This document shows positions 6,080 to 10,608 of a stretch of DNA of 54,655 nucleotides, piece by piece. Each line of letters begins with the position of its first letter. Position 1 is the first letter of the stretch. Both the position numbers and the translations under genes were made by a program. The notes beneath the pieces are model-generated. The model worked only from the letters and a program-made list of their open reading frames with translations. It made no database searches and was not told the origin of the DNA. The stretch is from Enterobacteria phage mEp021, in sequence record MH706966, one strand, 5' to 3'.

Positions 6080-6586
6080 TCAGGGTAAAGAAATACCGTG
6101 ATTGCTATGAAAGTTATACATTCTTTCAGCTTCTTTTCTTGCTTTTACGGCATCATCAAATGAGTCACCGTAATAAACGTACATTGTTTTCTTTTTCCCA
6201 TCAGACCCCCTTATACCTATTTGCGCCCGCCATTTATGGGTTTTCTTGTTCCACGTAACGCCAACGCATCCGCTAGTATTACTTGATGGCATTGTTTTGT
6301 TTCTGTTATTCTCCTTCCTTGTCACTATCCTTAAGTTTTCGATTCTATCGTCACCAGGTACATGATTTATGTGATCTATTTCCATTCCATCAGGAATAGG
6401 GCCGTTAAACATTTCCCAGATAATGCGGTGACGCCATGTGCAACAAATACCATTAACGCGTATAGTCCAATATCCGCGATAATGTTTACATCCAGCCACG
6501 CTACCTGCTTTTATTTTGTTATTTGCACGGTTACAAGACCAATATAGAACGCCGTCGCTATATGTAAATAAATCATCCCACATCAT
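6080..6586 (-). CDS. HNH homing endonuclease with AP2-type DNA-binding domain
   Basis: HNH_3-like EIDHINHVPGDDRIENLRIVTRKENNRN followed by the AP2-like SGCVGVTWNKKTHKWRAQI. The start was moved to the ATGATG at 6586/6583 so that only 14 nt overlap the upstream gene. Confidence 0.8.
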   Translation of the reverse strand: MMWDDLFTYSDGVLYWSCNRANNKIKAGSVAGCKHYRGYWTIRVNGICCTWRHRIIWEMFNGPIPDGMEIDHINHVPGDDRIENLRIVTRKENNRNKTMPSSNTSGCVGVTWNKKTHKWRAQIGIRGSDGKKKTMYVYYGDSFDDAVKARKEAERMYNFHSNHGISLP

Positions 6587-7703
6587 GACACCCAACCATT
6601 TCAGGCCTATATACAAAGCGACCAATTTCGCCATAATCAGGGCTGTAAATGATAACCGCCGCGCAACGTTGCGATCTCCAGCCTCCATTAGTTGAATAAG
6701 CGTCTTTTCCCGCTAACGTGCCGTGGTGTTCAACTATGCCTATAGATGATTCTGTTACTGATTTATGGTGCAAATGTCCGACATGGACGTAAACATATTT
6801 CGACTTGCCAAAATCCTCACGCCAGTCAGCTACGCAAGCAGACAATAAATTTTCAGGCTTTTTGATAGTGTGCCCGTGGTGGTAAGCAAGGAATGTTTTT
6901 CCGTACTGTGTGTGGTGGACGATGGCAGGGGACACATCAACCGTCACGCGCGGTTCATCTTCGTAAAAAGCCGCCAGCGCCGCACGTAGCCAGATCATTC
7001 CTGACTGGTCGTGATTGCCGGATAACACCTGGATTTCAACATCCTTATGATTTAATAACATCTTCCCTACCGCCCGCCGGACAGACCGGATCGCTACATA
7101 AACAAGTTTTGCGTAGCGACTATCTTGATCAAGAATGTGCCCGCTTGTTGGTGTCACCGGGACCATACCGTCAGAATGAAGTAGATCGCCACCGAGGAGC
7201 AGTACTGCTTTTTCAGACATAGGAGCAGCGCCAACCGCGTAGTCAAAGAAGTCATTCAACACGCGCTCAGCGATCCCAGTATCGTAGCTCTCACCGCATT
7301 CAGCTTTATGAGCAAGTGCCCCGATATGCAGGTCAAACACCGGATAAAGAGCCAGGCTTTTTTGAAAATCAATTTCCGGCACTGGCACTGCCTCCGCGCG
7401 TGGTATTTCTTCCGTGAATGCGTCGCGGGCGGCTTCCATTAGCCTTTCCATTTCATCGCGATCACGGGCTGTTTTAATCCAGCGCATGACCGTATTACCA
7501 GCCTTATCGACAAGAACAGATTCACCAGTAACGCCAAAACCCGGTGCGCGGCGCGTTGATAATAAACCGCGTTTCGCCAGCTTTGCGCCAAGCCGCTCGA
7601 CGTTGCGTTTTGACATGCCATATTTTTCGGCGATCTGTTTATACGTTAAACCGTTGTTATATTCAGCGATCAATTGCTCATCGCTTATCTTTCTTTGCGA
7701 CAT
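6573..7703 (-). CDS. N-terminal HTH fused to a calcineurin-like metallophosphoesterase (replication-module protein)
   Basis: 376 aa. HTH LTYKQIAEKYGMSKRNVERL, then phosphoesterase motifs DLHIG, GGDLLHSDG, GNHD, HHGH and GHLHH. Confidence 0.7.
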   Translation of the reverse strand: MSQRKISDEQLIAEYNNGLTYKQIAEKYGMSKRNVERLGAKLAKRGLLSTRRAPGFGVTGESVLVDKAGNTVMRWIKTARDRDEMERLMEAARDAFTEEIPRAEAVPVPEIDFQKSLALYPVFDLHIGALAHKAECGESYDTGIAERVLNDFFDYAVGAAPMSEKAVLLLGGDLLHSDGMVPVTPTSGHILDQDSRYAKLVYVAIRSVRRAVGKMLLNHKDVEIQVLSGNHDQSGMIWLRAALAAFYEDEPRVTVDVSPAIVHHTQYGKTFLAYHHGHTIKKPENLLSACVADWREDFGKSKYVYVHVGHLHHKSVTESSIGIVEHHGTLAGKDAYSTNGGWRSQRCAAVIIYSPDYGEIGRFVYRPEMVGCHDVG

Positions 7704-7736: not shown

Positions 7737-9224
7737 TCATTGGCAGAAAACAATCTCTTTAAATGCTTTTTCTACCATGTCGAATACTTCCGGCCTGTAA
7801 TAGAAAAACTCATTGCTTCCATCAAATTTCACAGGAAAATTGATTTTATAATTACTAAAAGCCTTATGCATCGTGTTTTCTAGTTTATGTATACTTTCGG
7901 TTGGCCCTTCTAACGTTTTCACGACACACAAATCAGGGATTCTAACACCTGCTTTATGTGCGCTTTTTAATATCCGATTTCTTCGCTCGTTCTCCTTAAC
8001 ACTTACGCCGATTTTCATTTGTGTAGGTAATTCCAGATCATCAACCATGATGTAAAGTTTGCCATAATCATAACGAAAGAAACCGTATTTAGCGCATTTT
8101 TGGCAACCCCTACCGCGCTTAAGTTCTCTAGGTCTAACCGACCACTTATGATTACAAACCTTACAGCGGCATGATACTTTTTTATTTACGTTCGTTATTT
8201 CTCCCAGCACTTCAACATCAGGATTAACCTTAGCAATAGCTAAAACATGTTCTTCGTGCGTTATAATCTTCCCAGCACATTTTGGGCAACCCTTCCCGCG
8301 TTTAAGGTTGCTAGGAGTAACCGACCACTTATGATTACAAACCTTACAGCGGCATGATACTTTTTTATCTACGTTCGTTATTTCTCCCAGCACTTCAACA
8401 TCAGGATTAACCTTAGCAATAGCTAAAACATGTTCTTCGTGCGTTATAATCTTCCCAGCACATTTTGGGCAACCCTTACCGCGCTTAAGGTGGTTAGGTC
8501 TAACTGACCATTCATGATCACAAACCTTGCAGCGGCATAATACTTTTTTGTCGCCACCTGTAATTTCACCCAGCACTTCAACATCAGGATTAACCTTCGC
8601 AATGGCAGCAATTTGTTTATAATGTGATAGTCTTAGTTTTTGTGCAATTTTCACACATTTACATTTCGGGCAACCGCTCCCGTGTTTAAGGGCGTCAGGC
8701 GTAGCCGACCATACACGATCACAAATCTTGCAGCGGCATAATACTTTTGTTCTGCTATTAACAATTTTCCCCAGCACTTCAACATCAGGATTAATTCTTG
8801 AGATGGCGGCGATCTGTTCTTCGTGTGATAATCTTTTTGGCCCTTGCTTTAACATTGCGCATTTCGGGCAACCATTCCCGCGTTTAAGGTTGCTAGGAGT
8901 AACCGACCACTCATGATCACAAACCTTGCAGCGGCATAATACTTTTGTGCTGTTATTTATTATTTCCCCCAACACTTCAACATCAGGATTAATTTTAGCA
9001 ATAGCCGCAATTTGTTCTTCGTGGGATAGCCTTGCGTTCCCAGCGCATTTTGGGCAACCTTTACCGTGTTTAAGGTTGCTAGGAGTAACCGACCATTCAT
9101 GATCACAAACCTTGCAGCGGCATAATACTTTTTCCCGGCTTCCAGTAATTTCTCCCATCACTTCAACATCAGGATTAACTTTCGCAATAGCTGCAACCTG
9201 TTCTTCGTGTGTTAGCTTGCACAT
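7737..9224 (-). CDS. Six tandem Zn-ribbon modules (CxxC...GCPKC) fused to a C-terminal T5orf172/GIY-YIG-like domain
   Basis: 495 aa. A module of about 61 aa, HEEQ(V/I)AAIAKVNPDVEVLGEI...KVLCRCKVCDHEWSV.P..LKRGKGCPKCAG, is repeated six times. The C-terminus GKLYIMVDD...MKIGVS...R..IL...H...F...KINFPVKFDGSNEFF resembles T5orf172. Confidence 0.8.
   Translation of the reverse strand: MCKLTHEEQVAAIAKVNPDVEVMGEITGSREKVLCRCKVCDHEWSVTPSNLKHGKGCPKCAGNARLSHEEQIAAIAKINPDVEVLGEIINNSTKVLCRCKVCDHEWSVTPSNLKRGNGCPKCAMLKQGPKRLSHEEQIAAISRINPDVEVLGKIVNSRTKVLCRCKICDRVWSATPDALKHGSGCPKCKCVKIAQKLRLSHYKQIAAIAKVNPDVEVLGEITGGDKKVLCRCKVCDHEWSVRPNHLKRGKGCPKCAGKIITHEEHVLAIAKVNPDVEVLGEITNVDKKVSCRCKVCNHKWSVTPSNLKRGKGCPKCAGKIITHEEHVLAIAKVNPDVEVLGEITNVNKKVSCRCKVCNHKWSVRPRELKRGRGCQKCAKYGFFRYDYGKLYIMVDDLELPTQMKIGVSVKENERRNRILKSAHKAGVRIPDLCVVKTLEGPTESIHKLENTMHKAFSNYKINFPVKFDGSNEFFYYRPEVFDMVEKAFKEIVFCQ
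8138..8503 (-). repeat. Near-perfect 183-bp (61-codon) tandem duplication inside the Zn-ribbon gene
   Basis: 8138-8293 repeats at 8321-8476 with about one mismatch. The rest of the gene (to about 9215) consists of diverged copies of the same unit. Confidence 0.85.
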
Positions 9225-9365
9225 CGTTTCAACTCCTTAAAACGCCTCAGACACTCTACAACGCAAAAACACACCGCGTAATCCACTTGTAATGGTGCAG
9301 TGTCTTTTTTGCGCCAGAATCGCAATCAGGTGGCTAATTTTTTGATTTACAGACTGGTATGAAGG

Positions 9366-9467: not shown

Positions 9468-9600
9468 TTTAAAATCCTCTCTAAAACGCTCTCTAACGAG
9501 CTAAACCGCTAAAGGTATGCAAGTGTAGCACCCAATGCTTTTTAGCTCGCTTATGGGCTTGTTTTGTTGGTAATTTTTGATTTTTGCGTATTGTGGTTGG

Positions 9601-10608
9601 TCAAATAGCGCCTGCGCGTGTATCGCGTAGCGTTTTTGGTTTAAGCAGGAAATCAAGTGTCGCAGTGAAGCCATTGCCGAAGTAAAAGTCTGAAGCCGTG
9701 TTTTTAAACGCCTCAAAGTAAGCAATAAAGCCAGTGATGCTTTTGTCTTTCAGGTAGTCAGTGAACGCATAGATCTTGCGTTCAAGATCCCGATCCAGTT
9801 CAGCAGGTGGCAACAGGCCATCAAACGTGCTGTTAAATGCTTCCACTACGTCGGCAGCGTTTGCAGTGACTGACAGTTTGCTCCATTGTTCAGCATCAGC
9901 CAGATACCCATCGAATTTAGTTACCCGGCAAATGTTAACAGGCTTAGGCACTCCACCACGGCCACGCCATTGCGTTAAAGCCCACTCAATCACTAATGTG
10001 ATCTCACCCTCCGTATACGCTTTGCGTGTTTTTGTTTCTGTCAGTAGTTCTACGAATGGCTTTGCATCACGACATTTGCATCCTGCCTTGTCGTTGTAGA
10101 AGGACAGGCAACGCAATGCCGCCAGATTAACCTCCCGATCTTCTTCGCTGATAGACTCGTCTTTTTCCAATACACGAAGTGTATTGTTTTTAATGTTCTC
10201 TTTACTGGTTATATATGACTGATTAGGGTTGCTCTCTGCCACTACCCCCGGTTGCTTTGTGCCACTACCCTGGTTGCTCTCTGCCACTACCCCCGGTTGC
10301 TTTGTGCCACTACCTGACAGTGAAGGTAAAACGATTACATAGAAATTGCTCGTTTGTTCTTTCCCTCCTATTAAATATCGAGGCTGTTTTAGTAATAAAC
10401 CTTTTTTGCAAAGAGCCTCGATTGCTCTCATTGCCGTACTTTTGTTTATTTCGCATTGCTTTGCTATGTGCTGGTAAGAAGGGTAGCACTCTCCGTTATC
10501 GTTAGCGTTATCAGCCAACTTTAACAGCACAAGTTTGTGCATTGGGTTGCCGACTTCAGTATGAAAGACTTCAACCATTAGCCGCATACTCATAAGCATT
10601 AACCTCAT
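9601..10608 (-). CDS. Replication initiator, lambda O-like (N-terminal winged HTH; start codon ambiguous, 10608-10578)
   Basis: The N-terminus KLVLLKLADNANDNGECYPSYQHIAKQCEINKSTAMRAIEALCKKGLL is typical of phage O/HTH_36 initiators. The gene contains iterons (peptide repeat SGSGTKQPGVVAESN twice), as lambda O does. Confidence 0.8.
   Translation of the reverse strand: MRLMLMSMRLMVEVFHTEVGNPMHKLVLLKLADNANDNGECYPSYQHIAKQCEINKSTAMRAIEALCKKGLLLKQPRYLIGGKEQTSNFYVIVLPSLSGSGTKQPGVVAESNQGSGTKQPGVVAESNPNQSYITSKENIKNNTLRVLEKDESISEEDREVNLAALRCLSFYNDKAGCKCRDAKPFVELLTETKTRKAYTEGEITLVIEWALTQWRGRGGVPKPVNICRVTKFDGYLADAEQWSKLSVTANAADVVEAFNSTFDGLLPPAELDRDLERKIYAFTDYLKDKSITGFIAYFEAFKNTASDFYFGNGFTATLDFLLKPKTLRDTRAGAI
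10168..10316 (-). repeat. Candidate origin of replication: four 22-23-bp iterons, an AT-rich stretch and a palindrome, inside the O-like gene
   Basis: Iterons GGTTGCT(C/T)T(CT/-)GTGCCACTACCC at 10228, 10250, 10272 and 10295. AT-rich segment at 10187-10227. Perfect palindrome CAATACAC-GAA-GTGTATTG at 10168-10186. Confidence 0.7.

Follow-up and report, generated by a model that had tools for sequence, protein, structure and literature searches.

A six-module zinc-finger array on a T5orf172 nuclease domain: a putative homing-endonuclease gene in a polymorphic early-operon slot of a temperate coliphage

In 2023, Barth, Dunham and Seed analysed 229 T5orf172 homing-endonuclease genes (HEGs), 200 of which carry at least one zinc finger of the CapR, DUF723 or DUF4379 type, many of them several; the authors picture the repeat proteins as 'beads on a string', in which the domains together determine target specificity, and document recombination between the repeats (PMC10448857). 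Nuclease activity of the T5orf172 domain itself has been demonstrated for ICP1 Odn (Barth et al. 2021, PMC8263062). Here we examine a gene of Enterobacteria phage mEp021 (sequence record MH706966, analysed at its full length of 54,655 nucleotides and called the window below) that encodes a 495-residue protein with six tandem zinc-finger modules followed by a T5orf172 domain. An earlier sequence-only reading knew of no characterised member with this architecture, a statement that does not hold: the 2023 analysis describes such arrays on T5orf172 nucleases, and close relatives, six-module ones among them, already fall under PHROG 681 and an NCBI protein name. The gene's domains, setting and array dynamics match the published family description, and the gene is an unusually long but ordinary member of that family of putative phage homing endonucleases. 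On balance we favour reading it as a free-standing gene of homing-endonuclease type, from the T5orf172 branch of the GIY-YIG superfamily, carried as a single-gene cassette in a polymorphic slot of the early operon.

The likeness to described T5orf172 HEGs (ICP1 gp165, gp174, gp121, gp53 and gp130, with relatives in T5-like, Plateaulake and Vibrio phages; PMC10448857) covers the order of domains, with one or more often repeated zinc-finger modules at the N terminus and the T5orf172 domain at the C terminus, as well as presence that varies among close relatives, a position next to or inside essential genes, degenerate recombining nucleotide repeats, and placement at boundaries of genetic exchange. 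Unlike the T5orf172 HEGs of lytic phages, the window gene resides in a temperate, non-lambdoid coliphage and in prophage relatives. It also stands at the top of the module range: among its 120 best-scoring homologues, 93 carry this C-terminal domain, with 2-6 modules and mostly 3 or 4, unlike the six canonical modules here. A stricter motif count that included 28 matches from a second search covered 115 proteins and gave 0-6 canonical modules per protein; mEp013_12 is one of the single-module alleles. A nuclease with six modules is thus at the long end of the range and not new; other six-module relatives are P0001, P0002 and P0007, of which P0002 is named 'GIY-YIG nuclease family protein' by NCBI, and phrog_681 ('endonuclease') matches the window protein over residues 148-486 (E=1.8e-90).

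An exhaustive HMMER search of 1.84 billion representatives returned 4,585 relatives at E<=1e-3, 1,867 of them at E<=1e-10. The longest arrays in this representative library have 14 modules, and an effector domain is missing from most long arrays. P0149 (1041 residues, 14 modules) and about 100 other representatives, including P0087 from Collinsella, are little more than runs of 6-14 CapR/DUF4379 modules, and no effector domain is recognisable in them. Such proteins are common in public data and may be DNA-binding proteins like CapR or the CasPRs, with long sites.

The same module family (PF21817) is found in two kinds of transcriptional repressor, which differ from the window protein in having one or two modules and no nuclease. 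Binding of PLE CapR to the ICP1 capsid promoter depends on the cysteines of the protein (bioRxiv 10.1101/2020.11.28.402263); the CasPR anti-CRISPRs, for which the five-cysteine set seen here has also been reported, combine CapR with AP2 and recognise defined sites within cas genes, and for monomeric CasPRIB1, which has one domain of each kind, binding requires a 30-bp site and zinc (bioRxiv 10.64898/2026.02.23.707548). In the literature, zinc-dependent, sequence-specific DNA binding by the CapR/DUF4379 module is described only for CapR and CasPRIB1 (10.1101/2020.11.28.402263; 10.64898/2026.02.23.707548). The window protein departs from the CasPRs, which additionally require AP2, in two respects: a nuclease domain is present, and a Pfam scan of all 495 residues matched neither an AP2 domain nor a helix-turn-helix (HTH) partner domain.

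Other GIY-YIG enzymes are less close. I-TevI has the reverse domain order, with the nuclease at the N terminus, and enzymes of the I-TevI and T4 Seg type use other DNA-binding modules (NUMOD, HTH); T5orf172 domains differ from theirs in having Lys at the second Tyr of the GIY-YIG motif and in lacking the His/Tyr of helix 1. Engineered zinc-finger nucleases (C2H2 arrays on FokI) are alike in concept only, in that an array of small zinc modules directs a loosely specific or non-specific nuclease: their ββα finger has about 28 residues, as against about 56 for the treble-clef/ribbon-like CapR module, and their nuclease is unrelated. The likeness is an analogy, not membership.

Six zinc-finger modules and a GIY-YIG-type domain

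The coding sequence and its parts are these:

7737..9224, minus strand: coding sequence, 495 amino acids plus stop codon, six zinc-finger modules then T5orf172 nuclease domain (list of open reading frames; Pfam, PHROG and NCBIfam scans)
9045..9212, minus strand: module 1, residues 5-60, inter-cysteine segment DHEWSVTPSNLKHGKG (Pfam DUF4379 and CapR stretches)
8859..9026, minus strand: module 2, residues 67-122, inter-cysteine segment DHEWSVTPSNLKRGNG
8661..8828, minus strand: module 3, the most divergent, residues 133-188, inter-cysteine segment DRVWSATPDALKHGSG
8460..8627, minus strand: module 4, residues 200-255, inter-cysteine segment DHEWSVRPNHLKRGKG (AlphaFold2 model)
8277..8444, minus strand: module 5, residues 261-316, inter-cysteine segment NHKWSVTPSNLKRGKG
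8094..8261, minus strand: module 6, residues 322-377, inter-cysteine segment NHKWSVRPRELKRGRG, with CQKC in place of CPKC (AlphaFold2 model of residues 318-495)
7740..8093, minus strand: T5orf172 domain with predicted GIY-YIG fold, residues 378-495
8052-8054, 8013-8015 and 7983-7985, minus strand: key codons Y391, K404 and R414
7878-7880, 7866-7868 and 7809-7811, minus strand: key codons E449, H453 and E472

The reading frame opens with ATG and encodes six tandem modules of 61-67 residues, then a C-terminal domain of 118 residues. The six-fold repetition at about 61 residues that had been noticed from the letters alone is borne out by Tandem Repeats Finder (period 183, 5.9 copies, 76% matches), by six C-x-C-x2-C-x16-C-x2-C motifs (starting at residues 35, 97, 163, 230, 291 and 352, spaced 61-67 residues apart), and by six matched stretches for each of two Pfam models: DUF4379 (PF14311; E=1.6e-36, 124.7 bits against a cut-off of 24.5), which Pfam describes as a 'probable treble clef zinc finger', and CapR (PF21817; E=9.7e-28, 96.6 bits against a cut-off of 24.2). 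All 30 cysteines of the six motifs are present, which makes five conserved cysteines in each module instead of the four-cysteine ribbon first proposed. Module 3 differs from the other five at 30-51 of 168 nucleotides. An NCBIfam scan of the 495-residue protein gave only spurious, sub-threshold matches to HypA-type zinc motifs.

The AlphaFold2 (AF2) model of a single module (module 4, residues 196-256; predicted local distance difference test score, pLDDT, 91.1) has a helix at positions 6-16, three short strands and a second helix at 48-52, with its cysteines clustered. The predicted structure is that of a small zinc-ribbon or treble-clef-like fold, in which a helix and a small sheet accompany a CxCxxC...CxxC zinc site. 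Searches of the PDB with the protein sequence and with a profile retrieved only a DUF4379 mitoribosome assembly factor (E ~0.1) and no solved relative bound to DNA. By analogy with PLE CapR and the CasPRs, for which binding has been shown, the modules may be taken as DNA-binding-type units, as the sequence-only reading had proposed.

The motifs previously picked out in the C-terminal domain (GKLYIMVDD...KIGVS...R...H...NEFF) are present, and its suggested likeness to T5orf172 and GIY-YIG proteins is upheld at three levels. Two Pfam models pass their gathering cut-offs, each by a small margin: T5orf172 (PF10544; 22.3 bits against 20, residues 395-482) and MUG113 (PF13455; 23.2 bits against 22.3, within residues 395-483). 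A fold search with the AF2 model of residues 318-495 (24 input sequences; mean pLDDT 83.7) returned EF2693 (UPF0213), the GIY-YIG restriction enzyme PD-T4-3 and AtGRXS16-N, with Eco29kI further down, and the domain is modelled as a GIY-YIG alpha/beta fold. Candidate catalytic residues are also conserved. Taking the catalytic set as Tyr in strand 1, Arg in helix 1 and Glu in the helix after strand 3, we find Y391 in every homologue that covers strand 1 in an alignment of 24, and K404, G406, R414, E449, H453 and E472 invariant throughout it.

A MAFFT alignment with ICP1 Odn (gp88, NC_015157) and ICP1 ORF121, the latter without direct similarity detectable by BLASTP, places E449 (KLE-NTMH) on Odn E180 (DTE-QRIH), an equivalence drawn from sequence alignment and not from superposed coordinates; Y391, K404-I-G406 (K-I/V-G), R414 and H453 align with Odn as well. 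The E180A substitution abolishes Odn cleavage in vitro and in vivo (PMC8263062). As these residues line up with those of Odn, where E180 is required, the domain appears to keep what a T5orf172 nuclease needs.

A polymorphic slot and a reshuffled array

The window belongs to a temperate coliphage of the mEp021-like (mEpimmI) type. It matches the deposited mEp021 fragment JQ072023 at 100% identity and mEp515 at 97.9% over the first 20 kb (PMC11893012); the gene is not discussed in the mEpimmI paper. Its leftward early operon runs from an HTH_36 initiator gene through the T5orf172 gene and a 376-residue gene to the DnaB helicase gene, so that the replication-operon location assigned earlier, here between an iteron-containing initiator and the 376-residue/DnaB pair, is confirmed. 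The insert and the repeats within it lie as follows:

7742..9255, no strand assigned: one-gene cassette (blastn of flanks and junction sequences against the empty site of sibling phage mEp010)
9233..9238, minus strand: ribosome-binding site AAGGAG, 8 nucleotides upstream of the ATG and inside the cassette (sequence read)
8318..8477, minus strand: copy A of a near-identical tract of 160 nucleotides; copy B lies 183 nucleotides away and differs at 1 position
8135..8294, minus strand: copy B of the same tract

Since homology to mEp010 stops at 7741 and resumes at 9256, the insert amounts to the gene and its ribosome-binding site. Between the same junctions, mEp013 has a 178-residue allele with one module, and mEp515, mEp554 and mEp044 have unrelated Bro-N/ANT genes (Pfam scan of the occupants). 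Bro-N and T5orf172 are classic domain-shuffling partners, and the slot is where genes of a single accessory guild replace one another. The Bro-N and ANT (KilAC) occupants lie at L001:7739-8482 in mEp515, L003:6482-7225 in mEp554 and L005:6473-7827 in mEp044, the last comprising two genes. In E. coli prophages the same slot holds three-module alleles (GN05505, P0029) and a six-module allele (P0002), with either an HTH_36 or a Lin1244_N initiator upstream and always a 372-residue/DnaB pair downstream. This combination of alternative initiators on one side and constant neighbours on the other marks the slot as a boundary of module exchange, as in Barth et al. We considered whether the array covaries with the type of initiator upstream and rejected the idea, as the identical three-module protein P0029 is found downstream of different genes. 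A five-module allele adjoins an integrase in an unrelated prophage context.

Homologues outside this slot interrupt essential genes. The rV5-like phage navn has navn_83, a homologue of 47% identity, between fragments of nrdD and the more distant navn_89 between fragments of PhoH, which is the classic setting of a homing endonuclease. The navn regions (L007, 728-5096 and 6130-8262) have nrdD annotated in at least four pieces and PhoH split by navn_89; navn_83, between the last two nrdD pieces, consists of two DUF723-type modules, one CapR-type module and a T5orf172 domain, and a 170-residue reading frame, navn_81, lies between two earlier pieces.

Within the gene, the last two units had been described as a 183-bp duplication with about one mismatch (8138-8503). 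In that register 7 nucleotides differ, and in the register of the modules (8094-8459) units 5 and 6 differ at 11 of 183 nucleotides and 6 amino acids; the near-perfect part is the 160-nucleotide tract, which starts at the C-terminal zinc knuckle of one module, takes in the linker and then the helix and first knuckle of the module after it, and ends just before the variable inter-cysteine segment. The 42 nucleotides that follow hold 10 differences, 3 of them synonymous, and the tract itself has no synonymous difference. Such a distribution of differences points to a recombination mosaic and not to a clean duplication followed by point mutation. Between alleles, the best matches of individual modules form no diagonal; the arrays are not collinear, and so have been shuffled and not merely lengthened or shortened. 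Another allele holds freshly duplicated, identical modules.

The homologue comparison proposed in the sequence-only reading bears out its expectations, with module number varying and the inter-cysteine positions the most variable. In a set of 309 distinct modules, the highest entropy falls at module positions 25-26, 37, 41-43, 45-46, 49 and 51, with a mean of 2.99 bits at these ten positions against 0.92 elsewhere, and W40, P44, L47, K48, G50 and G52 are near-fixed. That modules differ mainly between the cysteine pairs, as first read, therefore stands for the pair 5/6 and family-wide, with the qualification that the loop ahead of the first cysteine (25-26) and the linkers vary too. The ratio of nonsynonymous to synonymous substitution rates (dN/dS) at the variable positions is 0.81 in the module DNA of seven genes and 1.18 within the window gene, against 0.14 and 0.22 for the scaffold at similar dS, although the variable positions were picked after the entropy profile, so that their values are biased upward and only suggestive.

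Two apparent cases of loss were set aside. The one-module allele of mEp013 is not a recent deletion derivative, its module differing from each window module at 49-60 of 195 nucleotides (about 70-75% identity, with nuclease domains 91.9% identical in nucleotides). Nor do 103-residue 'nuclease-only' relatives represent decayed alleles in the example that we examined, P0127, which was made by an N-gap inside the repeat array; the gap lies at L016:1686-3312 of a metagenome scaffold, in an array of at least five modules. As short-read assemblies can collapse or break such arrays, database module counts may be too low.

Homing and its rivals

From these features we infer DNA binding by the modules, cleavage, a target and homing. 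Six independently folded CapR/DUF4379 modules joined by short linkers would bind a long, asymmetric DNA site, with specificity coming mainly from hypervariable surface positions (41-43, 45-46, 49 and 51, plus 25-26 and 37), and the tethered GIY-YIG-type domain (Y391, R414, E449) would cut DNA nearby. Genomes lacking the matching allele, met in mixed infection or when a relative enters a cell with the prophage, would be cut and then repaired from the carrier genome, a repair that would over-transmit the cassette and its flanks. Meanwhile the repeated scaffold sequences could recombine, so that modules are reshuffled, duplicated and deleted and the nuclease is retargeted. A homing or exclusion nuclease had already been suggested from the sequence, and such a role fits the genomic signatures of slot polymorphism and split genes in navn.

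Several points tell against homing. An endonuclease that homes in the classical way and stays at one locus would be expected to have an unchanging target, and the alleles of this slot have very different arrays, which an arms race or a competition weapon would fit at least as well. The unrelated Bro-N/ANT occupants suggest a general accessory hotspot, in which presence and absence are not specific to homing; most long arrays carry no nuclease, so the array alone must have other uses; and the upward bias in dN/dS weakens the case from the variable positions. A comparison by hhalign of the 24-sequence profile with the I-TevI catalytic domain gave no alignment, that profile being too shallow for the purpose, which is why the fold search and the Odn alignment were used instead. 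Finally, no T5orf172 HEG has been experimentally shown to home (PMC10448857).

The main rival, which the diverse arrays at one locus fit almost as well as homing and to which we assign a clearly smaller probability, is a domesticated weapon against competing phages, satellites or other invaders, whose array diversifies to follow escaping targets. It would account for same-slot arrays that are hyperdiverse and non-collinear while the nuclease domain remains 74-91% identical, and for dN/dS near 1 at the variable positions. It also has precedents: Odn, which shares the T5orf172 nuclease domain and the aligned catalytic glutamate but, unlike the window gene, is a demonstrated anti-satellite weapon aimed at the PLE replication origin (PMC8263062), coliphage Odn-like T5orf172 nucleases directed at satellites (PMC8263062; PMC10448857), and the CasPRs, in which CapR domains have been retargeted to host defence genes (10.64898/2026.02.23.707548). 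The search of PADLOC-DB 2.0 with the 495-residue protein cuts both ways, finding no known defence system and one marginal match, confined to the nuclease domain, to the candidate defence family PDC-S57 (E=1.5e-4, 19.4 bits). On the other side, the homologues that split nrdD and phoH resemble classical selfish insertions. Protection of a lysogen is also unlikely, because the early operon is repressed and the cassette has no convincing promoter of its own: none scored above shuffled expectation, and the sole upstream candidate matches 9 of 12 positions. The lack of a match to any known defence system points the same way.

Less probable again is a regulator that binds DNA sequence-specifically, has a nuclease domain that has ceased to cut, and represses phage, host or competitor genes by occupying a long site, in the manner of PLE CapR, the CasPRs or I-TevI as autorepressor; we consider it distinctly unlikely. 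CapR and CasPR, both non-cleaving repressors, are built on the same module (10.1101/2020.11.28.402263; 10.64898/2026.02.23.707548), T5orf172 was originally proposed as a DNA-binding domain (history in 10.1101/2020.11.28.402263), and the preponderance of effector-less proteins among long arrays in the representative library agrees with such a role. The conservation of the nuclease domain makes it less likely: across alleles, purifying selection has conserved the entire C-terminal domain together with its catalytic Tyr, Arg and Glu; a protein that only repressed should have lost that domain, as CapR did; and neither an AP2 nor an HTH partner is present. That the gene is an inactive, decaying remnant without present function is highly improbable. 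Homing-endonuclease genes commonly decay after fixation (PMC10448857), and the phage's own genome would be expected to lack the target site; against this, the frame is intact over 495 residues, all 30 motif cysteines and all candidate catalytic residues are in place, the scaffold evolves at a dN/dS of 0.14-0.22, and the apparently truncated relatives are an assembly artefact.

Beyond the homing reading lies a bolder proposal, which we regard as rather unlikely when taken as a whole. The modules could constitute a combinatorial DNA-recognition system, each reading a short subsite through its hypervariable positions, with recombination in the scaffold, of the kind seen in the 160-nucleotide tract that ends exactly where a variable segment begins, swapping and duplicating 'recognition cassettes'; the alleles of the mEpimmI slot (one, three and six modules, with four and five elsewhere) would then be long-site nucleases reprogrammed against each other's genomes. 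If recognition is modular, the 56-residue modules could become a new programmable DNA-binding scaffold, and if there is a combinatorial code, it could be deciphered and engineered, and would be distinct from those of C2H2 fingers and TALEs.

Taken alone the gene contributes little, since the family, the repeat architecture and the 'beads on a string' model have all been published; the interest lies in the variable positions mapped here and in a tractable series of alleles in a K-12 phage. E. coli K-12 is a host of the mEp021 group, and one locus offers an empty site, alleles of one, three and six modules and unrelated occupants, a ready genetic system in which to ask whether T5orf172 HEGs home, what DNA the array reads, whether modules contribute additively one by one, and whether the ten hypervariable positions set specificity.

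Neighbouring genes and repeats

Downstream of the slot, the conserved 376-residue protein (6573-7703, minus strand) has no Pfam match and is always paired with DnaB. It has an HTH-like stretch at its N terminus and His/Asp-rich motifs (GDLLHSDG, GNHD, GHLHH), and looks from these motifs like a metallophosphoesterase. The 3' end of its gene is overlapped by the 5' end of a second gene of homing-endonuclease type (6080-6688, minus strand; 202 residues), which combines HNH_3 with AP2; the corresponding insert (6089-6599) is present in mEp515 and mEp010 and absent from mEp013, mEp554 and mEp044. The T5orf172 gene and the HNH_3/AP2 gene thus bracket the 376-residue gene, in the manner of the 'HEG islands' described by Barth et al. 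2023.

Upstream, the 376-nucleotide spacer between the initiator gene and the cassette contains a 12-nucleotide tandem repeat, TAAAACCCTCTC, in 2.2 copies (window 9470-9496), which overlaps a weak promoter-like match on the minus strand (9495-9466). The initiator gene (9601-10608, minus strand) carries four iteron-like repeats of about 20 bp, GGTTGCTCTCTGCCACTACC / GGTTGCTTTGTGCCACTACC, at 10204-10314 with a spacing of about 22-23 bp, and the replication origin of the phage probably lies at these repeats within the initiator gene, as in lambda O. The repeats also encode a duplicated peptide, GSGTKQPGVVAESN.

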